Origin: a virus
Taxonomy: Duplodnaviria; Caudoviricetes
Length of the DNA: 58,059 nucleotides
IMG/VR virus record: IMGVR_UViG_3300020591_000001
Span: 1 to 58,059 of that record
Strand: one strand, 5' to 3'
The notes under the pieces were generated by a model that made no database searches, was not told where the DNA came from, and saw only the letters and a program-made list of their open reading frames with translations. How positions within the stretch are numbered: the first letter of the stretch is position 1; every line of letters begins with the position of its first letter. This document shows positions 24,728 through 58,059 of this stretch, one piece after another. The position numbers were made by a program, and so were the translations under genes.

Positions 24728-24928
24728 CTAGCTGGCCCCTTCGGCTCCATGAAGTTCGACGTAGAGGTCGGTCAGAAAGGCGGTTAGCGCCGGAAGGTCC
24801 TCGACCGAGAGGCTGGCCGGGTCGAAGCCAAGCCAGAGAGAGTCGCCCGTGAGGGTTGCCGAAAATCCGGACTCGGTATCGGTGAACGTCGTCACCGTGG
24901 GTGGCGTCGTAGTGCTTGTCTCGATCAT
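24728..24928 (-). CDS. Small hypothetical protein
   Basis: ATGA overlap with the tail gene; 66 aa. Confidence 0.65.
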   Translation of the reverse strand: MIETSTTTPPTVTTFTDTESGFSATLTGDSLWLGFDPASLSVEDLPALTAFLTDLYVELHGAEGAS

Positions 24929-26970
24929 GTGTCGCCTGTCTTCTTAGGGTAAACCGCGATGTTCAGCTTCGGCTTGTGCATTGCAACAACATTGGTGGCG
25001 TTGGCCTGCGCGCGGAGCTTGAATGTGATCGAGCTTCCGGCTGCAATGTCGTAGTGGACTTGGGCCCACCCCGGCCAGCGAGTGTTATTCACGCCGTCCG
25101 CGCCTATCGCGTAGATTGAGTCGATGATCGTGTCGTCGCTCAGGCAGAGGTACAGCTCGCCCTGGTAGCCCTGGTTGCACTGGATGATCGCTCCCCAGTC
25201 GATCACGGCGATGCGATCAATTGCGGCATAGGGAATCGTAATACTCATGTTCGCGTAGTCGGTTATCCTGGAGGGAACAGGCGACCAGGAGGCACCACTC
25301 ACGGAGCGGAATCGGGGGAGCGTTGCCGCGAGACCCGCCGGAGTCACGGCCCTCTCCGGGTCAGTACCCGCTGCCGTTTCGGCGCTGGTGGCAAGCTCAA
25401 CGATGCCGCGGGCGGTCGTGGATGCCACATCGCCCACATCGACAACGGCATTGCCATCCAGAGTGATGTCGCCACCCTCCACGGCGATGCCGTCCTTGAC
25501 CTGAAGACGCGCGCCGGTGCCGGTGTGGTACTGGCCCAGGCCGATCCCGATGTCCTCGTTCCAGTCCATGAAGACGGACTCGGAGGGGACGTTGATCGTG
25601 AGCGTCTTGATCGTTTTGCCGGTGTCGAAGCTGTTCTTGCCGAACAGGTCACGGATTGAGACCTCGACCTCGTACTCGTTGGAAGCCGCGTAGCCGCCGA
25701 TCACCTTCGGCGTCGTCCAGGTGTTTCCGGAAACCGTCGCAGCGGTCCAGTCCTGCACCGTCGTCCACGAGCCCGCACCCTTCAGGCGGGTGCGGATGCG
25801 CCACTCCAGCAAGTTCTTCTCACCGTCGCCGAAGTTCAGGCTCGACACGCTCGCCGCGGGCGTGATGCGCAGGTAGGTGCCCGTGGGGCTCGGCGTCGCG
25901 CCGCCAGCGTCAGACGTGCGCGTCACAACAGGCGTCGGCAGGTTCGGGTAGTTGTACGCCTTGACCGCGACGGTGTCGTAGAACGGGTCAGAGTTGCGCA
26001 GGCGAGAGTCAGTGGCGATCGCGGCGTAGGGCACCGCGCCCGAGGAGTTGATCGGGTTTGCGAACGCCACGCCACTGTTGGTGGTCTGGCCCGCCTGAGT
26101 GACCGTCGCGCCCGTGACGCTTGAACCGCCCGCCCCCGAGGACGTGACGGTGGGCTTCAGCTTGCTCCAGCGCTGCACGAAGCGCCCCGCGCCACCCATG
26201 AGGGTCGGGATGTCGGGGCCGGAGGTCTGCGCGTCTTCCCAGGCCACCGACGACACGGTCGGCTTGACGCTGGAGGGCACCGTGAGCGGCAGGTTGACCG
26301 TCTTGGTGCCGATGATTGTGCCGCCCGCGGAGGCGCGCGTGATGAGCCGAATGATGGCCGTAGCGGACGTGGAGTTCGGCAGGAGGGTGTGCGCCGGAGT
26401 CCAGTCGGTTGACACGTCGGTGCCGACGATGCCCGTCTGGATGTTGGTGTAGGTGCTGCCTCCGTCAAGGCTGTACGCAACATCGTGGTAGAAGCTGCTC
26501 GACGCGGGCGCGTGGCCGATGGTGAAGGTCTCGCCGGTCTGGCCGCTAGTGGGGGAGACCGTGGGCTGCGTGGCGCGCGCGATGGTCGGCAGGGCCCAGG
26601 TTGTGCTGAAGCTGGCGTCTCCAAGAGGACTTCCGCCCGAGTAGGCGGCACCGACCGAGATCGTCTTAGTGCCGTCGGCATTGTGGGCAATGACCGTGGT
26701 TCCCGAGGCGACGCTCACTGTGGCGTTCGTGCTGCGGAAGTCATACGACAGTCCGCCCGCGCTGTAGACGAGGCCGCCAACCGTAGCGTTTGCCGACGCC
26801 ACGTTGTTGAGGTTGTACGGACTCGCGTTGACGCGCTCCTCCATGCGGAGGTGCCAGTTGAGCGTGCTCGTGTTGTTCGGGATGCTCTGGCTGACGAGGT
26901 CAACCTGGAGCACCAGCCAGATGCGCGCGCTGGTGCCCGGAGTGCTGAACTCACTTTCCCACGTCGCCAC
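24925..26970 (-). CDS. Minor tail protein / probable receptor-binding protein
   Basis: QSIPNNTS...HNADGTKTI...LPTIARAT siphovirus tail domain; GIVELAT fibre repeat; divergent C-terminus. Confidence 0.8.
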   Translation of the reverse strand: MATWESEFSTPGTSARIWLVLQVDLVSQSIPNNTSTLNWHLRMEERVNASPYNLNNVASANATVGGLVYSAGGLSYDFRSTNATVSVASGTTVIAHNADGTKTISVGAAYSGGSPLGDASFSTTWALPTIARATQPTVSPTSGQTGETFTIGHAPASSSFYHDVAYSLDGGSTYTNIQTGIVGTDVSTDWTPAHTLLPNSTSATAIIRLITRASAGGTIIGTKTVNLPLTVPSSVKPTVSSVAWEDAQTSGPDIPTLMGGAGRFVQRWSKLKPTVTSSGAGGSSVTGATVTQAGQTTNSGVAFANPINSSGAVPYAAIATDSRLRNSDPFYDTVAVKAYNYPNLPTPVVTRTSDAGGATPSPTGTYLRITPAASVSSLNFGDGEKNLLEWRIRTRLKGAGSWTTVQDWTAATVSGNTWTTPKVIGGYAASNEYEVEVSIRDLFGKNSFDTGKTIKTLTINVPSESVFMDWNEDIGIGLGQYHTGTGARLQVKDGIAVEGGDITLDGNAVVDVGDVASTTARGIVELATSAETAAGTDPERAVTPAGLAATLPRFRSVSGASWSPVPSRITDYANMSITIPYAAIDRIAVIDWGAIIQCNQGYQGELYLCLSDDTIIDSIYAIGADGVNNTRWPGWAQVHYDIAAGSSITFKLRAQANATNVVAMHKPKLNIAVYPKKTGDT

Positions 26971-26972
26971 GC

Positions 26973-29900
26973 CTAGTCCTCCTGATACCTGATGACGAGC
27001 CTACTGCCGCTGGACTTGGTCTCTCGCAGCATCTCGTAATCGCCGATGCGGAATCGCTCGTCCACACGAGCGCGCGGGCTCACGAAGTTCACCAGGCTCG
27101 CATCGGAGGCGTCAGCCTCCCACCACGACAGCGGCGTCTGGTCGTTGCGAATCTGCACGCCCGAAGGGTGGATGAAGGTGTTGAAGCTGGAGCCCTCCGA
27201 GGAGATCGCCACGCCCGTTGTCGGGTTACCAGTCTCAGCCTCGACTCCGTCCGCCCCGAACTCGAAGACGGCGTCGTAGGGCGCGATCCAGACCTCGCCG
27301 GTGGTCGCGTCGAGGATGAAGCTCGGGTTTCCAGAAACATCGTAGGCCGTCAGCGCAGCGTCGGTGATCTTGATGCCGGTGTTCGCCAGAGGGCTCGTCT
27401 GGATCGTGACGCCCGTGATCGGCAGCAGCTCGATCGGCCCAGCCTCGGGGGACTCGGAAGTCTGACCGCGCTCGTCCACCATGACGATCTTCGCCCAGTA
27501 GTTTCCGGGAGCCAGTCCCGGAACGACAACCTCGCCAGCGCCGGTGAGCGGCATTCCGGCGCGGACGAACGTGCCGCCGGAGCTGGTAGAGATCGCCGCG
27601 TAGACGTATTTGATCTGCGGCAGCATCCCGCCGCCGCTCCAGCGGATGCGCAGCAGGCCAGCGTACTGATCCAGCGTCGGCGCGTCCGGCGCGGGTGCCG
27701 CGGAGATCGTTGCGTCAGCGACCGCAACGACGGGGCCGGTGAGGTCGCTCTGGCCGCCGAAGCCGGAGACAGCCCGAACCTGGAAGCTCCACTCCTCCCC
27801 ATCCGCAACGCCGTAGCGCACGCTCGGCACCAGCGACGACGTGAGGTAACGCGCGTCGGTCTCGTCGCTTCGCTTGCCCCACAGGTCGTAGCCGGTGATG
27901 TCGATCGGATCGCCGTCGATATCCTCGGTGGGCGCGGTCCACTCCAGGTCGAACCAGGCAGTCGGGAAGTAGCCGGAGGCGTCCCATCCCGCTCCGGCAG
28001 TCGCCGTGAGGTCGGTGGGAACCTTCGGCTTGGGCGGGTCGAGATGAGGGTCGGTGAGGGTGATCGCTTCGGGGTCGGACGCATCTCCCGCATTGCCCAG
28101 GCGGTCGTAGCCGCGCAGGCGCACGAGGTAGTCACCCCAGAGGCCACCCTTGTTCAGGACGATCGTGCCAGCGCCAGGGATCGGCGTCCCCTCGGTGGTG
28201 TACGTGAGGCCGCCGTCGGTGCTGACTTCAGCAACGACGTAGGCCAGGCGAGCTGGTGCCGGGTCGGTGCCAAGAATGCCAGCCCAGACGATGTAGATGC
28301 CGCCGACGCCATCCGTGTAGAGGTCGGCGATCTGAGGGCCGTCCAGGTCTACGGCAGGTGCGAGAGTGGTGTGGTCGATGTCCTCGGAAAACTCGCCGTA
28401 GACGCCCGCAGAGCTTCGCCCGCGCACGCGGAACTCCACGTCCGCCAGAACATCCCAGTCGGGCATCTCCAGGCTTGTGTCGGCGGTCGCGCCGCGGAAG
28501 GCCCACTCGCCGCCGACAGCGGGCCGCCACCAGACCTCGTAAAGATCGACGGTGATGGGCGCGCCGTTCATGGCTTCGGTGATCGCGGCCCAGCTCAGAG
28601 TGACCTCGCTGCGGGCTGCACCATCACTGTTCCAGTAGCCCACACTCGTGACGGTGTCGAGCACGGGAGCGCTGGGGATGCGAGAGTCCAGCGGCGAGGG
28701 CGTCAAGCCATTGCCGCCGGAGATCGAGCCACCATTCTGCGCGCTCTGCCGCTTGGCAAGGCTCGCGGTTCCCGAGAGGATTCGATCCCCCGTCAGGGCC
28801 GTGATCGTGAAGGAGTCCGTGCGCTTGTCGATGGTGACCTGGCTGAGCCGGTCGGTGACGGGCTCGCTGTCGCCGGGAATGAGCACCCAGTCGCCAGGGC
28901 GGAACACGACGTAGGGGAAGAACTGCGCTGCGGCATCCTGAGCCGTGTACTCGAAGGTGCGCTCAGAGATGGCAGAGGAGTTGTCACGCAGCGCGTTGTC
29001 GCCGATCGTGTTGGCCTCGCCGGGGGTTGTGACGCCCTGCGCCGAGACCCAGCCCTCCATCTGGCCGAACACGTTCGCATCGAACGCCGCCTTCTCTCGG
29101 GTGACCTGCACGTCCTCGTCGCCGGTGACCGTGACGCGAGTGAGGCGCTTCTCCACGGTGCTGCGCCGCGGCGCACGCGAGAGGGTCGCGAGCGAGAAGT
29201 TCACGACGGGGCTCGCCCCCACGTCCGCGAAGCTGGAGCCGGTGCCGGGGTTGAGCAACACGAGCCACGCCTTCTCGGTGTGGTAGGCGGTGGTGTATTC
29301 CGCGTAGCCGTCAGTGACGAGCCCTTCGAGCACCTGTGAGATTGGGGTGCCCTTGCTCACCTTGCGGTCGATGGTCGTGTTCAGCCAGGTCTCGCCGAGG
29401 CTGGTCCGCGAGGCGCTGAACGCCTTGTCGATGCGAGGGCCCCAGCCGCGACCCTTGGCGTCGTTGATGAGGTCGGCGAGGATGCGCCCCGGTGTGACCC
29501 CCGTCCACTCGTAGTCCTTCTGTGCGTAGGCGAAGGCAAGCGAGAAGTCCACGAACTCGGTGCCGGTATAACTGTTCGCCTTCGTGGGGTCAACATCATC
29601 GCCCTCGACGCGCGAGAGCACGAGGCGGTGGTTGGTGAAGTACCAGTCGAAGCCGTCCGACACGTCGATATCCACGATGCTGAAGTCGGCGAAGTCGGTC
29701 GCGTTGAGGCGGCTCATGGCGATGGTGCAGGTCGTGGTCGCGCTGGAGGGATCGACCAGGCTGATCGTGTCAGCGGGAACGATCTTGCCGGGTCGCCACT
29801 CGCCGCCCGAGAACTCGACCACGCGAGCGCGGATGTCGAAGCTCTGGTCGGGAGTGCGCTGCACGATCTCGGGAGCCGCGGGAGGGTTCTTGGCGAAGAG

Positions 29901-30578
29901 GGTGACCTGCTTCGAGCCCAGCACGGTCGCGCCGCTCTTCGTGACGGCAGTGATGACGATGGGGGCTTGGCTCTGGCCGGGGAACTCGCTCATCACGTCT
30001 GGCACTGTCCAAGTGGCGCTCGCGCCGATGCCAGTTCCGATGGTGCCGCTCTCGGAGCCCGAGGCCCACGTCACGTCGTGCGTGTAGCTGCTGACTGCGC
30101 GAGGCAGGGTGATCGTGACGGTCGCGCCGACCGCCGCCGGGCTCGGGCTGACCTTGGGGGTGGTTGCTCGCGGGATCGCCGTCAGCGCCACGGTCCCCGA
30201 GACGGACATGGTGCCGGGCGCGTAGCCGAGAGGACTGCGCTCCCAGGAGCCCGACACCGCGATCGACTTGGTGCCATCGGTGCCGTGGGTGATCGTCCGG
30301 CTGCCCGAGGCGACAATGTGTTCGCTCCAGCCGTTCCACGGGGCGGTGGGGTTCTGGTTGTACTGGTTGAAGACCTCCACGCCGTCGATGGTGACCTTCT
30401 GGGTAGCGAAGTAGTCGTAGAAGCCCTGGTAGCTGCGATCCTTCTGGATAGCCATCGCCCAGTTGACTGTGCTCTGGTTCGCCGCGACGTTCTGCGAGGC
30501 GAGATTGACCGTCAGGCGCAGGCGGTACTTCGCTCCACCGTTGGGAACCGAGTGCCACCCCGAGTAGAAGTCGGCCAT
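26973..30578 (-). CDS. Large minor tail protein with FN3-like domains
   Basis: 1201 aa; HGTDGTKSI...IPRAT domain and FN3-like LxWxAP...GY...F.VRA repeats. Confidence 0.82.
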   Translation of the reverse strand: MADFYSGWHSVPNGGAKYRLRLTVNLASQNVAANQSTVNWAMAIQKDRSYQGFYDYFATQKVTIDGVEVFNQYNQNPTAPWNGWSEHIVASGSRTITHGTDGTKSIAVSGSWERSPLGYAPGTMSVSGTVALTAIPRATTPKVSPSPAAVGATVTITLPRAVSSYTHDVTWASGSESGTIGTGIGASATWTVPDVMSEFPGQSQAPIVITAVTKSGATVLGSKQVTLFAKNPPAAPEIVQRTPDQSFDIRARVVEFSGGEWRPGKIVPADTISLVDPSSATTTCTIAMSRLNATDFADFSIVDIDVSDGFDWYFTNHRLVLSRVEGDDVDPTKANSYTGTEFVDFSLAFAYAQKDYEWTGVTPGRILADLINDAKGRGWGPRIDKAFSASRTSLGETWLNTTIDRKVSKGTPISQVLEGLVTDGYAEYTTAYHTEKAWLVLLNPGTGSSFADVGASPVVNFSLATLSRAPRRSTVEKRLTRVTVTGDEDVQVTREKAAFDANVFGQMEGWVSAQGVTTPGEANTIGDNALRDNSSAISERTFEYTAQDAAAQFFPYVVFRPGDWVLIPGDSEPVTDRLSQVTIDKRTDSFTITALTGDRILSGTASLAKRQSAQNGGSISGGNGLTPSPLDSRIPSAPVLDTVTSVGYWNSDGAARSEVTLSWAAITEAMNGAPITVDLYEVWWRPAVGGEWAFRGATADTSLEMPDWDVLADVEFRVRGRSSAGVYGEFSEDIDHTTLAPAVDLDGPQIADLYTDGVGGIYIVWAGILGTDPAPARLAYVVAEVSTDGGLTYTTEGTPIPGAGTIVLNKGGLWGDYLVRLRGYDRLGNAGDASDPEAITLTDPHLDPPKPKVPTDLTATAGAGWDASGYFPTAWFDLEWTAPTEDIDGDPIDITGYDLWGKRSDETDARYLTSSLVPSVRYGVADGEEWSFQVRAVSGFGGQSDLTGPVVAVADATISAAPAPDAPTLDQYAGLLRIRWSGGGMLPQIKYVYAAISTSSGGTFVRAGMPLTGAGEVVVPGLAPGNYWAKIVMVDERGQTSESPEAGPIELLPITGVTIQTSPLANTGIKITDAALTAYDVSGNPSFILDATTGEVWIAPYDAVFEFGADGVEAETGNPTTGVAISSEGSSFNTFIHPSGVQIRNDQTPLSWWEADASDASLVNFVSPRARVDERFRIGDYEMLRETKSSGSRLVIRYQED

Positions 30579-39260: not shown

Positions 39261-39336
39261 TGGCTGGTCCGGCAGGGCTCGAACCTGCGACATCCCACTT
39301 AACAGGCGGGCGCTCTGCCGACTGAGCTACAGACCA
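39261..39336 (-). tRNA. tRNA-Asn (GTT)
   Basis: 76-nt cloverleaf: acceptor TGGTCTG/CGGACCA, D arm GCTC/GAGC, anticodon arm CCCGC-CTGTTAA-GTGGG, T loop TTCGAGC, encoded CCA. Confidence 0.95.
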
Positions 39337-50787: not shown

Positions 50788-50873
50788 ACCCGATCGCCCC
50801 GTGGCGGGGTTGAGGATACGCTCCTCCCCCGCCGCGGGTGCCCCGGTTTCCGGAAACCGAACCGCCCCAGGAC

Positions 50874-50889
50874 TCGAACGTCTGTTCGA
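50874..50889. promoter_or_regulatory. LexA (SOS) box, perfect match
   Basis: TCGAAC-GTCT-GTTCGA matches the actinobacterial consensus TCGAAC-N4-GTTCGA. Confidence 0.75.
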
Positions 50890-51036
50890 GTCTTTTTTCA
50901 CGCGCCTCGTTTTCTTAGGGGGCGGCGAGGGGATGGAAAACGCGCGAAGAGCCGACGGGGGGGTTTCTGGGGGCTCGACCGGCCTGAACAGTGCATATAG
51001 AGCTTCTCGAAAGTGAGGGAATGTGTATGTGTGCTA

Positions 51037-51052
51037 TTGGACATCTGTTCGA
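51037..51052. promoter_or_regulatory. LexA box, degenerate
   Basis: TTGGAC-ATCT-GTTCGA. Confidence 0.5.
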
Positions 51053-51187
51053 GTTTCGGGGCGATGCTGCACGAGTCCGACCGGAAGTATGACCAACGTG
51101 AGTGCTGGTCAATACCAAGAAGCCTGTATTTACGGGGAAGTTAGGGTTACCTAAGTAGAGCTGACGAGGGGGTACCCCCTCACTACG

Positions 51188-51262
51188 CATATACATAGAG
51201 AAACAGTGTCTACTTTCCATACTTTTAAATACACAAATAGACACTGTTTCTATATGTGTATG
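51188..51262. repeat. 25-bp imperfect inverted repeat around an AT-rich 25-nt spacer
   Basis: CATATACATAGAGAAACAGTGTCTA ... TAGACACTGTTTCTATATGTGTATG (2 mismatches); adjacent perfect palindrome GAGGGGGTACCCCCTC at 51166-51181. Confidence 0.85.
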
Positions 51263-51286
51263 GTGTGTAGAGGGAGGGGGAGGGGG

Positions 51287-51302
51287 GAGAACATTTGTTC
51301 GA
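51287..51302. promoter_or_regulatory. LexA box
   Basis: GAGAAC-ATTT-GTTCGA with an intact GAAC-N4-GTTC core. Confidence 0.65.
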
Positions 51303-51523
51303 GTGTTATCGCGTTGGCACCCCTAGCCCTCTATTCCACAAATCCACAAATCCATAAAGGCGAACCATCCGGCCTACCACTCCATCCCTCCCCATTCAGC
51401 TCACGGTTTCCGAAACCGCCGCTCCCCGTGAGCCCCGAAACAATCCACGACTCACCACCCCCGGCGCGTTCCAACGTCGGAACGCGCCACCAATCCACGC
51501 CCTATCCAGAAACGGAGTACGTC

Positions 51524-51838
51524 ATGACCGACCCCGAAGCCACCGAGTTTCAGCCCCGCTCGGATCACATCTATGAGCCCAAGGGCTCGGCGCTGTTCTT
51601 CTGCGCCATGATCGCCCTCGGCGCTTTCGCGTTCGGAATCTTGATCGCGACTCCCGATCCCGTACAAATCCGGAATCGAAATCTGACCCCGAGTGACGTG
51701 CTCCCGGCGTGCGCCACGGAGGACTCCTCCAACTGCTACTGGGATGCGAGCGCCCGCGGAAACCGCGAGGGCCGATCCTTCATCGACATCGGCGGGGTCG
51801 TCTACTACACCGACTACAAGGGCACTCTGAACCCCTGA
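51524..51838 (+). CDS. Small membrane protein with extracellular Cys-pair domain
   Basis: CGGAG RBS; TM helix followed by LPACATEDSSNCYWDA...GN..G.SF. Confidence 0.75.
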   Translation: MTDPEATEFQPRSDHIYEPKGSALFFCAMIALGAFAFGILIATPDPVQIRNRNLTPSDVLPACATEDSSNCYWDASARGNREGRSFIDIGGVVYYTDYKGTLNP

Positions 51839-51874
51839 ACCCCTGAACCCCTGAACCCCTGAACCCCTGAACCC
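51827..51874. repeat. (CTGAACCC)6 octamer tandem repeat
   Basis: Read directly; overlaps the stop codon of 51524..51838. Confidence 0.92.
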
Positions 51875-51925
51875 CGATCCAGCGCCCGCTGGGTCGGTTT
51901 CTAGAAACCAGAAACGGAGAACACC

Positions 51926-52865: not shown

Positions 52866-53669
52866 ATGAGCAAGTCCACCCCCAAGGAGTACACGCTCCC
52901 GAACGGACGCACCTACGTGCCCCGAGCGCTCGGCGGCTTCGAGGACGACGTGACCGGACTGCGCGAGCTGGCGAAGATGGGCAAGCACACGCTGCTGCTG
53001 GGCGAGCCCGGCGTCGGCAAGACGGCGCTGTTCCAGGCGGCGTTCCCCGACTCCGAGAACGAGATCGGCCACTCCAAGCTCACGGCCTTCGACATGCTGT
53101 GGCGGCCCCGGCCCCTGCCCGACGGCACGATCCAGTTCGACCCGAGTCCGCTGACGCGAGCCGTGATGCACGGCAAGCCGTTCTACTTCGATGAGATCAT
53201 GCGGTGTTCCGAGGATGCCCTCACGCCGCTCTACAGCGCGATGGACGGTCGCGGCTTCATCGTCGGGGGAAATCTCGACGGCACCGACCTGCCCGTGAAG
53301 GAGGGCTTCACGGTGATCGCGGCGTCGAACCCGCTGGTGCGTGGCGCGTTCCTGCCGGACGCGATCGCGAGCCGGTTCCACATCATCGACGTGCAGGTCT
53401 CCGAAGAGCTGCTGGTCAAGCTGGGCCTCCACGACCGGCTCATGACCGCATGGCGGAACCTGTCCAGCCAGGAGGGCGGCGACGTGTGGCGACCGAGCGT
53501 CCGCGAGATGCTGGCGGCGCAGGAGTTCATCGACGTGGGCAACTGGGCTCAGGCTGCCTACGCCCTGACCGGCTGGCGAGTGCCTGCCCGCGACCGCGCC
53601 ACGGTCGCCGGAGTAATCGGGCCCCTGTTCGGGGTGCGTGTTTCGGACCTCGGCGGGGTTATCAAATAG
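52866..53669 (+). CDS. MoxR-type (CbbQ/CobS-like) AAA+ ATPase
   Basis: Walker A GEPGVGKT, Walker B FYFDEI, GFTVIAASNP, Arg finger AIASRF, sensor PSVRE. Confidence 0.88.
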   Translation: MSKSTPKEYTLPNGRTYVPRALGGFEDDVTGLRELAKMGKHTLLLGEPGVGKTALFQAAFPDSENEIGHSKLTAFDMLWRPRPLPDGTIQFDPSPLTRAVMHGKPFYFDEIMRCSEDALTPLYSAMDGRGFIVGGNLDGTDLPVKEGFTVIAASNPLVRGAFLPDAIASRFHIIDVQVSEELLVKLGLHDRLMTAWRNLSSQEGGDVWRPSVREMLAAQEFIDVGNWAQAAYALTGWRVPARDRATVAGVIGPLFGVRVSDLGGVIK

Positions 53670-53910
53670 TGGTGTGATCAAGTAGCAGTACCGGATCGGC
53701 GGGGTTCGACTCCCCCGTCAGGCCCGTAGCAATCCAACTTCACCTAGGGTCGGGCGGCCCGAGGATGGTGGAGTTTCCAGAAACCGGGGGAGCCTGTGTT
53801 GCTCTCCGTTTCCGGGCTCTCCCGGTTTCGCTTCTGGGCTTCATAGCACACAAAGGGCTATGCTGATAAAAGCAGTAACGTACCTATCCATCAACGAAAG
53901 GAGCATCATC

Positions 53911-54480
53911 ATGGCTGCCAAGAGCACCAGCACCACCAACACCAAGAAGGCCGCACCCGAGCCGCAGTTCTCCGAGATCGCCGCGACCCTGGCCGCGGCG
54001 GAGCAGCAGGCGAAGGCGGCGTCCGCCGACGCGACCCAGGCCCGAGCCGCGCGTCAGCAGGCGGCGGTCGGAGCGATCCGGTCGGCGTTCGCGCAGGTCA
54101 TCGACGGCTCCATCGTCCGCAAGACCCTGCTGGACGCGGGAGTCCTGAAGGGCACGGTCTCCAAGATCGTGACCGTCATCGACGCGCTCCACGAGGGCAT
54201 CATCGCGCTGGACGACGTGAAGAGCCTCAACGGGGCGTACAGCTCCGTCCGTGCGGTGCGAGCTGTCGCCGCGGGAACCCACCCCGCCGCCGCGCCGATC
54301 CCCGCCCCGGTGCCCGTGGCACCCCCCACGACCCCGGACGAGGCCCTGGACATCATCCTGAACTCGATCCGCACCGCGGGCAGTGACGACGCGATCTTCA
54401 AAGCTGCGGGGGACTGGATCAGCAAGATCACCGACGCGATCTCGGCGATCACGAAGGCGGTCGGTTCGGAGGAGGAGTAA
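53911..54480 (+). CDS. Hypothetical protein, shared C-terminal domain family member 1
   Basis: GAAAGGAG RBS; ends TPDEALDIILNSIR...FKAAGDWISKITDAISAI. Confidence 0.8.
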   Translation: MAAKSTSTTNTKKAAPEPQFSEIAATLAAAEQQAKAASADATQARAARQQAAVGAIRSAFAQVIDGSIVRKTLLDAGVLKGTVSKIVTVIDALHEGIIALDDVKSLNGAYSSVRAVRAVAAGTHPAAAPIPAPVPVAPPTTPDEALDIILNSIRTAGSDDAIFKAAGDWISKITDAISAITKAVGSEEE

Positions 54481-54484
54481 CCAG

Positions 54485-56386
54485 ATGAGCACCGATCCGA
54501 TCATCCTGGCCGCGCAGGCCCGTGAAATCCTCGCGGGCCTACACCAGCGCAACGACACCGTCGTGCGCTTCAAGACCAACCTCTCCGGCCACGCCGAGGA
54601 CGCCACCGACGCGCTGGATGAGCGAGCGCCGGGGCACTTCCGCGCCGACAAGAAGATTCTGACCCTCAACCTCGACACGCTGCTGAACGGCAAGGGCATA
54701 CCCGACTCGCTGGCGACGATCGAGGACTGGCGCAAGTACCCGGTGCTGGCAGGGGTGGCGGCGCACGAGAGTGCCCACGCCCGTTTCAGCCTGTGGGACT
54801 CGGACGGGAACGAGATTCCCGAGACGATTCCGAACCCGGACTACGATCCGGCTGACCCCGAGTCAGGCCCGGAGGAGTTCAAGGTTTCCGAAACCGGTAA
54901 GCTCCTCGACATCGCGAAGCTTCTCGAAGAGCCCCGTGTCGAGCGCCTGGGGGTGAAGACCTTCACGAAGACCTGGCGGCGGGCGATGCAGTTCTCGGCG
55001 ACGCACCTCATTCTGGAGCGTGTTGACGAGGACGACGCCGACGGCAGGGACTCCCTCGACGCGGCGCTGAACCTCGTGATCCTGGTCGGGGGCCGACTCG
55101 CGGCGGGAACGCTGGGGGTCTCCTACAACTCCCGACAGGGCGTCAAGAAGGTGCTGGAGAGCGCGCAGAAGATCATCGAGACGGCGCTGTCCGAGAGGAT
55201 GGCAGCCGACCCGAAGTTCGACCCGTACCACGAGATCATGAAGATCGTCACGGATGCCGTGTTCGATGACAACCACACCGACGCAACGTCTCGCCTGGAG
55301 GCGGCGCGCCAAATCCTGAAGATCGTCCGCCCCGAGGGGGCGGATAACCCTGACGGGTCGGGCTCGGGCGACGGTGAGGGAGGCGAGGGCGCTGGCAAGC
55401 CGAGCCCTGGCGAAGAGGGGGGCGAGGGCGGCAAGTCCGAGGCGCAACAGGCGGCGGAGGCGGCAGCCGAAGCGGCGATGAACGCCATGAAGGACGCCAT
55501 GCGCGAAGCGATGGACAATCTCGTCACTGAGATGCGCAAGGAGGTCGTCTCCGAGGAGTCGCAGCCCGAGGCTGAGGGCGGCGGCGGATTCGGTGCGACG
55601 ATCTACGCCGACCCGCGCGCTCCGGGGCTCGACCACTACGAGCAGCCCAACGCCGACGACCGGGAACTGTACCGGCGTGCGGTGGATTGGATGGAGCGAC
55701 AGGTGCAGCCGACGGTGACCGAGGCCGAGATCGGCCAGTGGCACCCTGGCGGCGGCGCGCGACTGGATGTGCGATCCTACGTCCGCGACAACCTCGCCAA
55801 CCATCGAGTGAACCAGCGCACCGACTGGAACCGGGTTTCGGAAACCGTCAAGCCCGCCCCGCCCGTCAAGGTCGCGGTGATGCTGGACGGCTCCGGCTCG
55901 ATGCGCCCGAAGGCGCGGCTGAGCGCGTCGATCGGCTGGGCGGCGGCGAACGCCGCGGCGCAGCTTCCGGAGTCGCGCACGGTGTCCGTGGTGTACGGAG
56001 CAGCCGCAACGGTCACCCAGAAGCCGGGCGGCGACCCGATCCGTCAGGTGGCGGTATCCAAGACCAACGGGCCGTTCGAGAACTTCGGACATGCTGCCGA
56101 GCTGGTCGAGGAGGCGCTGTGGCTGGACGAGCCGACCGAGGAAGGGGAGCCGACCAACGTGCTCATCGTGATCGTCTCCGATCTGATGTACGGCGGATCG
56201 GCACCGTTCCGCGGCGAGCACCGCGCCCAGGGCGAGGTCTTCACGGAGGTCACGCGCGAGTGGGCCGACAAGGGCTACCAGATTCTCGTGGTGGGGGCTG
56301 ATCCCAAGCGCGAGCGGGAGCGCGCCACCTGGGGCGTGCGGATTGACGCCGTGCAACTCGTTACCCCCGACGAGCTGTTCCGGTAG
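54485..56386 (+). CDS. VWA-domain protein (CobT/NorD-like) with N-terminal HExxH domain
   Basis: AAHESAH...LEEPRVE; acidic Gly-rich linker; MIDAS motif MLDGSGSM; VIVSD. Confidence 0.85.
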   Translation: MSTDPIILAAQAREILAGLHQRNDTVVRFKTNLSGHAEDATDALDERAPGHFRADKKILTLNLDTLLNGKGIPDSLATIEDWRKYPVLAGVAAHESAHARFSLWDSDGNEIPETIPNPDYDPADPESGPEEFKVSETGKLLDIAKLLEEPRVERLGVKTFTKTWRRAMQFSATHLILERVDEDDADGRDSLDAALNLVILVGGRLAAGTLGVSYNSRQGVKKVLESAQKIIETALSERMAADPKFDPYHEIMKIVTDAVFDDNHTDATSRLEAARQILKIVRPEGADNPDGSGSGDGEGGEGAGKPSPGEEGGEGGKSEAQQAAEAAAEAAMNAMKDAMREAMDNLVTEMRKEVVSEESQPEAEGGGGFGATIYADPRAPGLDHYEQPNADDRELYRRAVDWMERQVQPTVTEAEIGQWHPGGGARLDVRSYVRDNLANHRVNQRTDWNRVSETVKPAPPVKVAVMLDGSGSMRPKARLSASIGWAAANAAAQLPESRTVSVVYGAAATVTQKPGGDPIRQVAVSKTNGPFENFGHAAELVEEALWLDEPTEEGEPTNVLIVIVSDLMYGGSAPFRGEHRAQGEVFTEVTREWADKGYQILVVGADPKRERERATWGVRIDAVQLVTPDELFR

Positions 56387-56395
56387 GCGGGTGTC

Positions 56396-56812
56396 ATGAA
56401 TCGCCACCGGGTGAAGCGCCACCGGCACGCCTGGACGGGAGGCTCTGACATCTGCGAGTGCGGCGCTCGCCGTGACGCACGTCAGAGCCTCCCGAGCAAC
56501 CCCGTCGTGACCCAGGAGACCCTGCGGAATCTGGTCGCGTCAAGCTCTGCGAGCACACTGGCGATGAGCGACTTCAGCGAGGCGATCCAACGAATCGGGG
56601 CCAGCCTGGGTGACGGGGCTAGTTTCCGAAACCCCGCCCCAGTCAGGACTCGTGAGCCGACGCCAGAGGAGGCGCTTCAGGTGATCTTCGACTACCTGGA
56701 GCGGGTCGCCGCCGAGCGCCCGGACGCCCTGGTCGAGACCGCGGGGAAGTGGATCAGCCAGGTCACGAACGGCATCGCTGATATACTTAGAAAGCACGAA
56801 GACGATATCTAG
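56396..56812 (+). CDS. Hypothetical protein, shared C-terminal domain family member 2
   Basis: N-terminal H.H.W...CECG; ends TPEEALQVIFDYLER...VETAGKWISQVTNGIADI. Confidence 0.75.
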   Translation: MNRHRVKRHRHAWTGGSDICECGARRDARQSLPSNPVVTQETLRNLVASSSASTLAMSDFSEAIQRIGASLGDGASFRNPAPVRTREPTPEEALQVIFDYLERVAAERPDALVETAGKWISQVTNGIADILRKHEDDI

Positions 56813-56841
56813 ACAAGACATATACAGAAAGGGGGCAGGAC

Positions 56842-57336
56842 ATGAACCCCGAGGAGAATGCCTACCCATACCCCAGCGTTCAGTTCGGTGCCAGGCGAGT
56901 GCCGGACCCGAAAGACCCTGACTACTCTGTCGTGTTGAGCATTGCGCCCGTCCACGAGCAGATCACCTTCGCGAGCCGCGACCGGCTTACGCAGGTCGTC
57001 GTGCCGTGGGAAGACCTACCCAGGCATCAGGATCGGATGACGGTTCGAGAGTGGGACGGGATTGTGAACATGCTGAAGCGGCACGTCGGGCAGCACGGCA
57101 GCACCACTAGCACCTTCTCGGTTTCGGAAACCTCTCGCGGCTCGCTGCGGAACTCGGCGCAGGAAGTGCTCAACGCACTGGCTCAGTTGGGGGCGTCCAG
57201 TGACGACGCGCTAGCGATCATCCTGTCCGAAATCACAGCCTCCGACGATCCGTTCAAGACCGGCGGAGACTGGATCGCGAGATTCACGAACGCCGTCAAC
57301 GCCATCATCAAGGAGGCCGAGGCGAACGATGGCTGA
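56842..57336 (+). CDS. Hypothetical protein, shared C-terminal domain family member 3
   Basis: Ends SSDDALAIILSEITASDDPFKTGGDWIARFTNAVNAI. Confidence 0.75.
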   Translation: MNPEENAYPYPSVQFGARRVPDPKDPDYSVVLSIAPVHEQITFASRDRLTQVVVPWEDLPRHQDRMTVREWDGIVNMLKRHVGQHGSTTSTFSVSETSRGSLRNSAQEVLNALAQLGASSDDALAIILSEITASDDPFKTGGDWIARFTNAVNAIIKEAEANDG

Positions 57337-57775
57337 CGACTGGTTCGCCGCGGCGGCCAGCGAAGCTGCCAAGACCGAGGCTGCCAAGAAGGTCGCAGCG
57401 CGCAGCAGTGTAATCGATCGACTGCGCCAGGAGGCGGCGGCACAGCGTGAGCGGATCGAGGCCGAGAAGCGTCGCATGGCGGCGTCGAGCCAGAAGAGCC
57501 GGGGCGAGGTCGCCAGCGCGGCTGGGGAGTTCTTCGCAGCAGTGGCGGCGGGCGTGCGGCCCCCTCACGCGCCGGGCTACGCTTCCGGCGGCTACGCTTC
57601 CGGCGGCGGCGCTTCCGGCGGCGGCGCGGCGCGGATGACCCCGGACGCGGCACTCGGGGTTATCGAGGATGCGGTGCGCAGGAGCGCCGATCCGTATCTC
57701 GCGGCGGGTGAGTGGATTTCCAAGATCACCAACGCGCTGAGCGCGATCGCACGAGAGTACGCCGACGAGGGCTAG
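57329..57775 (+). CDS. Hypothetical protein, shared C-terminal domain family member 4
   Basis: Coiled coil, GYASG linker repeats, ends TPDAALGVIEDAVRRSADPYLAAGEWISKITNALSAI. Confidence 0.75.
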   Translation: MADDWFAAAASEAAKTEAAKKVAARSSVIDRLRQEAAAQRERIEAEKRRMAASSQKSRGEVASAAGEFFAAVAAGVRPPHAPGYASGGYASGGGASGGGAARMTPDAALGVIEDAVRRSADPYLAAGEWISKITNALSAIAREYADEG

Positions 57776-57849
57776 ACTGCCTCACTACTAGCCAAACCAA
57801 CAAACCAGCAGTACCATATATCCATATACCCAGAAGGGAGCATCACAAC

Positions 57850-58059
57850 ATGGGCTTCATCGGCAACGTCAAGGAGGCGGTCAAGGACGCGCGCGAGGGC
57901 GTCCGCAAGGGCCGCCGCGACATCGATCTTGCGAAGGCGTTCTTCGCCGAGCACAACGACAACCCGCCGTTCGACGTGGCGAAGCGGTTCTTCACCTCTC
58001 TCGGCGACGACGTGGACACCTCCAAGCCGCGCGAGGTTCGCGCCTACATGCACACGGTC
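57850..58059 (+). CDS. 5' part of the junction-spanning hypothetical protein (continues at 128..676)
   Basis: GAAGGGAG RBS, ATG at 57850, frame open through the overlap. Confidence 0.8.
   Translation, partial: MGFIGNVKEAVKDAREGVRKGRRDIDLAKAFFAEHNDNPPFDVAKRFFTSLGDDVDTSKPREVRAYMHTV

Follow-up and report, generated by a model that had tools for sequence, protein, structure and literature searches.

Pairs of MoxR-class ATPases and von Willebrand factor A (VWA) proteins are common in phages and plasmids, where they are often annotated as CobS/CobT or 'porphyrin biosynthesis'. Among the literature examined, as far as the available parts of it go, only two such pairs come with an experimental handle: one is linked to tail development in ATV, and in the other a predicted defence system makes the MoxR gene of the phage Bas54 necessary (bioRxiv 10.1101/2025.11.20.689424). 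[quoted passage not shown] Here we analyse a six-gene locus (positions 52866-57775, plus strand) of a tailed phage with 65% G+C (IMG/VR record IMGVR_UViG_3300020591_000001). The window, meaning the whole stretch of 58,059 bp that was analysed, is the entire assembly and forms a single contig. The locus encodes a MoxR ATPase, a VWA protein and four small proteins that share a C-terminal domain, hereafter the tag, on otherwise unrelated N-terminal parts. The tag may dock interchangeable small subunits onto the VWA protein, a reading to which we give about an even chance of being correct.

The sequence-only reading of this DNA had proposed that the genes starting at 53911, 56396, 56842 and 57329 (hereafter g1 to g4) end in the same two-helix pattern. 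BLASTP comparisons of their products gave significant results for all six pairs (E values from 2e-4 to 6e-11), and only the C-terminal 38-80 residues align. A hidden Markov model (HMM) of the four tails scores g1 to g4 at E values of 1e-24 to 1e-28; the next of 985 six-frame open reading frames (ORFs) reaches 2.7, and no fifth copy of the tag was found by this search in the 58-kb genome. The four tails are therefore copies of one homologous domain of about 50 residues. The sequence pattern originally given for them matches all four proteins and no other six-frame ORF, but the spacers measure 16, 18, 13 and 13 residues and that of g2 exceeds the range of 10-16 set for it. The domain corresponds to residues 141-189 of g1 (54331-54477; pattern match, HMM E value of 7.7e-28), 89-138 of g2 (56660-56809), 119-164 of g3 (57196-57333) and 104-148 of g4 (57638-57772). 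It can be defined as a two-helix hairpin with the consensus TP(D/E)(E/D)AL..IL..I....D(P)...F(K)AAGEWITK(I/V)TN.I..I.RE, followed by 3-7 acidic residues and located at the C-terminus of a protein of fewer than 300 aa, a definition that all of g1 to g4 fit in its hairpin consensus, acidic end and terminal position.

The distribution of the tag was studied by searching the four-tail profile against 1.84 billion protein representatives, which gave 149 matches at E ≤ 1e-3, 25 of them at E ≤ 1e-10. Three of these (P0047, P0135 and P0137) were dropped as spurious, being long repeat proteins in which stretches of 14-30 profile positions are matched many times over. The true family is made up of 146 clusters (at 50% identity) of proteins of 44-294 aa. 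The tag ends at most three residues from the C-terminus in 143 of the 149 listed matches. It is thus a genuine conserved domain family, almost always placed at the extreme C-terminus and carried by recurrent but unrelated N-termini. Conservation is highest at W34 and T39 (144 of the 146 members each), followed by I14 (138), G32 (128) and D23 (120). The acidic tail that had been noticed in the window also holds family-wide: Asp and Glu make up 46.6% of the last eight residues, compared with 13.1% of the remaining sequence, 129 of 145 members have three or more acidic residues within these eight, and the final residue is Glu or Asp in 95 of 145. This count also leaves out P0131 (232 aa), the sole member with an internal tag (residues 61-101), which is followed by an acidic stretch and then by a Cys/His-rich C-terminal part.

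The N-terminal parts of at least 25 aa (138 in all) were clustered by BLAST and form recurrent classes that are unrelated to each other. Together with the restriction of the g1-g4 alignments to the C-termini, this upholds the earlier description of unrelated N-termini on a common tail. The largest class, here called class A, includes g1 (53911-54480; 189 aa) and 34 clusters. Class B, which starts with a DDWF motif and includes g4 (57329-57775; 148 aa), has 32 clusters by BLAST. A third class with the motif GGIV.YD, often accompanied by a His/Cys knuckle, has 16 clusters. The minor groups include the relatives of g3 (56842-57336; 164 aa), with four clusters, and of g2 (56396-56812; 138 aa), with three, and 32 N-terminal parts are singletons. 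P0011, P0073 and P0096 are the N-terminal relatives of g3, and P0007 and P0012 those of g2. The linkers that had been read between the two parts of these proteins are present in the sequences, namely the Pro/Ala linker of g1 (PAPVPVAPP) and the Gly/Ser/Tyr linker of g4 (GYASGGYASGG), as is the His/Cys-rich N-terminus of g2. The AlphaFold2 model of g1, based on a 35-row alignment, has a mean predicted local distance difference test score (pLDDT) of 91 and consists of a five-helix N-terminal domain (residues 20-122), a linker (123-141) and the hairpin of the tag (142-154 and 159-187). With this model, Foldseek returned no match at E ≤ 1e-3 from PDB or BFVD, and a wide fold search (VIA) returned generic helical bundles only, the best at a Z of 7.1. 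At the sequence level, Pfam, PHROGs and NCBIfam contain nothing that matches the tag or the small proteins, the 146 family members bring up nothing in Pfam beyond six single weak matches, and the tag and class-A profiles find no relative among the PDB sequences. Some records of the family consist of the tag only. One of them, P0026 (52 aa), matches the last part of a complete class-A gene of a related locus (L004, 5-604) with 98% identity, so these tag-only records are probably truncated gene calls.

Two comparisons inform on what the tag could bind. First, its identity between N-terminal classes (0.358) nearly equals that within classes (0.412), which suggests a single common constraint on the domain; in 74 out of 82 cases a tag has its nearest neighbour within its own N-terminal class, where 29 such cases would be expected. 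Second, tags of the same genome are not more alike than tags of different genomes (0.359 versus 0.369; permutation p = 0.77). Concerted evolution or same-genome drift of the tags was considered and is not seen in these values, and the lack of lineage-specific drift within genomes fits a slowly evolving common partner. A different possibility, which we regard as unlikely, is that the tag serves for oligomerisation, homotypic or heterotypic, with two hairpins forming a four-helix bundle, and that the MoxR-VWA pair acts on the resulting assembly through another surface such as the class-A N-terminal domain. Two or more tagged proteins occur in each examined phage in which the module is visible in full, and the tag of the g1 model is a bare two-helix hairpin. 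By our reading of the alignment, the hydrophobic columns (10/11/13/14/15/18 and 34/35/38/42/45/46) also exceed what one helix-helix interface would need. Moreover, the small terminal effector-associated domains (EADs) of bacterial MoxR-vWA systems couple their components by homotypic contacts, according to the part of the description available (PMC7159879). Yet the HMM has only its four hits in the window, which leaves MoxR and the VWA protein without a tag copy. A hidden copy in the VWA protein was looked for separately and rejected, the probability given by hhalign for the tag against the VWA alignment being 0.3%. The lack of greater likeness among same-genome tags also contrasts with the EADs, which the same source reports as closest to lineage-specific paralogues, and the conserved acidic tail would have no obvious role in a helical bundle.

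The arrangement of the genes would point towards the MoxR-VWA pair as the partner. All six genes start with ATG, have a G+C content at third codon positions (GC3) of 0.79-0.92 and are preceded by a purine-rich, Shine-Dalgarno-like stretch, and judging from these signals they are real. The ATPase gene (52866-53669) is followed by g1, the VWA gene (54485-56386) and then g2, g3 and g4, which corresponds to the gene order first described, the ATPase and VWA genes being separated by one tagged gene, with three more behind the latter. From g1 to g4 the genes are either spaced by 4-29 bases or, in the case of g3 and g4, overlap by 8 bases, which suggests co-translation; the gap between g1 and the VWA gene is 4 bases. 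This arrangement was compared with 16 related loci (L003-L018), one from a 6-kb contig of a metagenome-assembled genome in a genome collection (L003) and the others from metagenomes. L003 was retrieved by the class-A motif and L004-L018 by the tag motif of a 32-row alignment subset; neither MoxR nor VWA was used for retrieval. Three pairs of loci are near-duplicates (L007/L008, L014/L015 and L004/L005). In 13 of the 16, a tagged gene has a homologous VWA gene beside it; the remaining ones (L014, L015 and L017) start at or inside tagged genes and are cut off upstream, where the VWA gene would be, with their downstream genes kept. The co-occurrence of tag and VWA gene that the sequence-only reading had proposed to test is thus observed wherever the contigs allow it. 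MoxR is present in all seven loci in which it could be visible, the other nine either starting behind the class-A gene or reaching no more than 738 bases upstream of it.

The order of the genes is fixed: MoxR, class A, VWA and then one to four further tagged genes. Both in the window and in the 11 related loci where its motif was found, the class-A gene occupies the place between MoxR and VWA. The series of tagged genes closes with class B (assigned by BLAST or the DWF motif) in the window and in seven of the nine related loci that extend to the gene behind the series. The number of tagged genes after the VWA gene is one in L010, two in L003, L011, L012 and L016, three in the window and four in L018. 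Identity to the window decreases from MoxR (69-76% in five loci) to VWA (55-64%) and class A (42-50%, the range of g1 and its class-A relatives) and ends with non-homologous N-terminal domains in the variable slot. This variation in number and kind is what would be expected from the interchangeable modules proposed earlier, a part of that proposal which stands; their contact with the motor is something that we infer. In L010 (2134-2988) the class-A gene matches g1 across two reading frames, which represents a frameshift or an assembly error, and in L005, L011, L012 and L018 the frame upstream of MoxR has zinc-finger-like CxCGH...H motifs, nothing similar being found before the MoxR gene of the window.

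Beyond these loci, the 50,697 cultured phage records of INPHARED yielded no relatives, either with the locus as a megablast query or with the VWA protein and g1 (the latter at E ≤ 1) as tblastn queries. The IMG/VR viral contigs likewise gave none, whether searched with the VWA protein or with the alignments of class A and of the tag. A word-based search did recover 60 further full-length VWA homologues with 43-69% identity, all metagenomic and several on contigs of 57-64 kb. The joint absence of the tag and of this VWA protein from both collections bears on another explanation, in which the tag would bind a partner other than the motor, either a conserved host hub or another phage component, and the adjacency to MoxR and VWA would only reflect inherited gene order. 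The loci all come from one clade with synteny over the whole genome (L012, for example, has the same order of terminase, small-terminase and exonuclease genes), and it can be added in favour of this explanation that contact between tag and motor is, as said, one that we infer. Against it stand, besides their shared absence, the position of the class-A gene, squeezed in between MoxR and VWA and almost touching the latter, and the conservation of the tag in phages that range from 54 to 65% G+C. Since this range suggests differing hosts, a phage-encoded partner is favoured over a host one, and we consider binding outside the motor very improbable. Taken together, the conservation of the tag across classes, the lack of drift, the G+C span and the tight packing of the genes would support a partner that is common to the tagged proteins, conserved and phage-encoded.

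Which proteins this motor consists of can be stated with more precision. The product of the first gene (267 aa) matches Pfam AAA_5 over residues 41-171 and the complete profile (positions 1-139 of 139; 1.6e-14, 54.5 bits for a curated cut-off of 22), as expected from its earlier identification as a MoxR ATPase, and is made up of a bare AAA_5 module with intact Walker A (GEPGVGKT) and Walker B (FYFDE) motifs in its translation. Its PHROG matches are phrog_16448 'ATPase' (4e-25) and phrog_249 'porphyrin biosynthesis' (2.7e-10), and its PDB sequence matches are the AAA of Midasin (1e-10) and NorQ (7e-6). The Pfam bpMoxR match remains below the cut-off, at an E value of only 0.035. On these sequence matches the protein is a MoxR-class AAA+ ATPase of the NorQ/CbbQ/CobS type. 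With a single small gene in the interval, the VWA gene follows 816 bases downstream. Its product was called a VWA protein with HExxH from its motifs, and both are in place: HESAH at residues 94-98 (54764-54778) and the MIDAS sequence DGSGS (DxSxS) at residues 468-472 (55886-55900). Among the 60 homologues, the MIDAS residues D468, S470, S472, T499 and D566 are invariant, as are H94 of the HExxH motif, E149 of an acidic cluster at residues 148-153 and L631-F632 at the extreme C-terminus, and E95, H98, E148 and E153 are conserved in at least 90%. The protein of the window scores 19.8 bits against Pfam VWA_2, below the cut-off of 27, and at E ≤ 0.01 VWA_2 is matched by 32 of the 60 homologues and VWA_CoxE by 13. 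The fold of residues 457-633 matches 9doc_A (Z of 11.4, root-mean-square deviation of 2.8 over 136 residues) in a low-confidence model (pLDDT 53), which also matches the VWA domain of NorD (9qh8_G; Z of 8.1) and many other VWA chains. Neither the protein nor its profile finds a relative among PDB sequences, and none of the 60 homologues matches Pfam CobT (PF06213), CobT_C (PF11775) or a NorD-type family at E ≤ 0.01. Residues 1-300 resemble CobT clusters of the ESM Atlas (score of 0.95, 181 shared features, 53% of the members with PF06213), a similarity to be taken as a lead only.

The conservation of the HExxH motif raises the possibility that the tagged proteins are clients of the machine instead of parts of it. 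The tag would then be a recognition signal or degron for unfolding, for cleavage of the linker or for timed removal, by which early proteins would be switched on or off. In addition to the nearly invariant HExxH and the conserved E148, E149 and E153 downstream of it, this would account for the flexible Pro/Ala or Gly-rich linkers before the tag. It also has parallels in the sections available of two reports: Iyer et al. propose peptidolytic processing for the MoxR and metallopeptidase-vWA pair of jumbo phages (PMC7824862), and CbbQO requires the substrate's own C-terminus (PMC4660213). Nevertheless, the peptidase is a putative one: Pfam matches no peptidase family in the VWA protein or in any of the 60 homologues, and the model falls below a pLDDT of 50 at residues 1-87 and 96-102, around the motif, which leaves the first 110 residues too poor for a peptidase-fold search. 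In our reading, the T-P-D/E-E at the start of the tag resembles an ordinary helix N-cap and not a cleavage site, and a universal class-A gene between the two motor genes looks more like that of a subunit than that of a substrate. For these proteins to be clients thus seems quite unlikely.

Under the docking reading, the locus would encode a three-part phage machine made up of a MoxR ring, a single VWA adaptor and a family of small tagged proteins. The ring would be of the NorQ/CbbQ/CobS type, and the adaptor would be built like NorD, CbbO or CobT, with an N-terminal HExxH domain, a long acidic linker, a VWA domain with a complete MIDAS and a conserved C-terminus. The hairpin and acidic tail would be the handle by which the tagged proteins dock on the adaptor, in a manner that mirrors CobN on CobT and Rubisco held by CbbO. 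The MIDAS face of the VWA domain could be the site of contact, perhaps together with the N-terminal domain of the adaptor, and an Asp or Glu of the acidic segment could complete the metal site. The class-A protein would be a constitutive subunit and class B would usually be present too, while the genes between them would be swappable modules whose N-terminal domains select the target of the motor. ATP hydrolysis would then twist or pull the bound protein, with or without cleavage by the HExxH domain. A bolder version would make this a programmable machine for remodelling or proteolysis, a CobST/NorQD-like motor with a peptidase-bearing VWA adaptor that is aimed at host defence complexes or hubs by the adaptors plugged in through their tags. 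Eukaryotic viruses offer an analogy, as they redirect ubiquitin ligases with swappable adaptor proteins. We see this version as possible but rather doubtful; if it were true, different host proteins would be targeted through one C-terminal tag.

Several observations count against docking on the adaptor. All 16 loci belong to one phage clade (with VWA proteins 55-64% identical to that of the window), for which reason the co-occurrence of tag and VWA gene is not independent evidence, and the adjacency may be inherited rather than functional. In addition, the loci were sampled from the tag side only; the sample does not cover the share of VWA homologues that have tagged neighbours. In Gordonia phage GMA2 (L001, Orf48-Orf45), a distantly related ATPase gene (about 35% identity to that of the window) is followed by two small genes and then by one for a protein of 731 aa that has the HExxH and DxSxS motifs, and these small genes have neither a common tail nor a tag. 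No binding surface can be named on the adaptor because its model is poor. As the tag of P0131 is internal, in this one of 146 members, a free terminal carboxylate cannot be obligatory. Finally, the four tags of the window have Ser or Ala at a position where 107 of the 146 family members have Thr. A private change in the VWA protein that would compensate for this replacement was sought at positions conserved in at least 93%, none was found, and the idea was dropped as post hoc.

The genomic setting of the module informs on its possible role. The minus strand between 21.2 and 49.1 kb carries the genes for structure and lysis, among them those for terminase, portal, protease, tape measure, tail proteins, endolysin and holin. 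A plus-strand arm begins near 49.5 kb, passes through the MoxR/VWA locus and crosses the end of the window, past which it contains genes for an exonuclease, an SNF2 helicase, a DUF2800 nuclease, an Enc34-type single-stranded DNA-binding protein (SSB) and PrimPol. The module thus heads the early/replication arm, so the likely targets of the machine would be host or phage proteins handled early in infection. It could also be thought that the module is a virion-assembly chaperone and the tagged proteins are assembly factors or scaffolds, for which precedents exist in p618/p892 of ATV (PMC4124505) and in the jumbo-phage pair (PMC7824862), as the consulted parts of these papers present them. Its location opposite to the structural genes, at the head of the exonuclease/helicase/SSB/PrimPol arm, and the lack of any match of a tagged protein to a structural PHROG make this extremely unlikely.

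The window has some further features. An open gene at 57712-58059 resumes at 1-676 and both pieces match a single ORF of the related locus L017 (1138-1917), which implies that the assembly is circular or circularly permuted. A stretch of about 1.1 kb between early genes (about 50800-51900) has no ORF of high GC3 and no Rfam match at the gathering threshold; it may be regulatory or non-coding. A promoter and terminator scan of 49-58 kb returned fewer sites than in shuffled sequence. Within the structural arm, a tRNA-Asn (GTT) is located at 39261-39336 on the minus strand, and two adjacent tail genes on the same strand (24925-26970 and 26973-30578) both match the N-terminal part of phrog_372 (1.4e-68 and 1.5e-42) and have a common N-terminal module.

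Since a pair of MoxR and metallopeptidase-vWA in phages (PMC7824862) and bacterial ternary MoxR-vWA systems (PMC7159879) had already been described in the passages available of these two papers, presenting the whole locus as an undescribed multi-gene system, as the sequence-only reading did, overstates its novelty. It is the tagged third component that is new, the pair of MoxR and a peptidase-VWA protein being already known in phages; no description of a comparable tag family was found in the literature, among the listings, abstracts and passages covered. The locus offers candidate partners for such a motor, in the form of a conserved tag on a few small proteins that are encoded with it and probably co-translated with it, and provides a route to learning what phage MoxR-VWA motors do. 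It also defines families that had no name (the tag, class A, class B and the GGIV class) and that can be used to annotate metagenomic phages.

The ternary systems of Kaur et al. 2020 (PMC7159879), as far as the sections consulted describe them, also have a MoxR-vWA core, a third component, small terminal adaptor domains and fast-changing variable parts. They differ in being cellular defence systems, and their third component, VMAP-C, is a mixed alpha/beta domain, whereas that of the phage is all-helical in the g1 model, the VWA protein ends with its VWA domain and there is no C-terminal effector. Their EADs have a copy on the core protein and are closest to paralogues of the same genome; the phage tag has neither property. 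Among viruses, p618/p892 of ATV are also a virus-encoded MoxR ATPase and its vWA partner. The jumbo-phage pair of Iyer et al. 2021 (PMC7824862) has a vWA protein with an N-terminal metallopeptidase domain, as the HExxH motif suggests here. The part of that article available mentions no family of tagged small proteins and proposes a role in virion assembly, in contrast to the early/replication placement of the present module. The NorQ-NorD, CbbQ-CbbO and CobS-CobT(-CobN) systems resemble the phage locus in their short AAA_5 ATPase of about 270 aa and, judging from the accessible text of the reports, in their three tiers of motor, adaptor and held protein (PMC13036017, PMC4660213, bioRxiv 10.64898/2026.07.21.739949, 10.64898/2026.10.09.757910). 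They differ from it in their context, which here is a 58-kb tailed phage without cNOR, Rubisco or CobN, and in their adaptor, that of the phage carrying HExxH and matching no CobT, CobT_C or NorD-type Pfam family. Unlike these systems, each of which holds one large enzyme, the phage has 2-6 small proteins with a common terminal tag, and if the docking proposed here is true, the motor-adaptor-client scheme of NorQD and CobSTN would extend to exchangeable clients.

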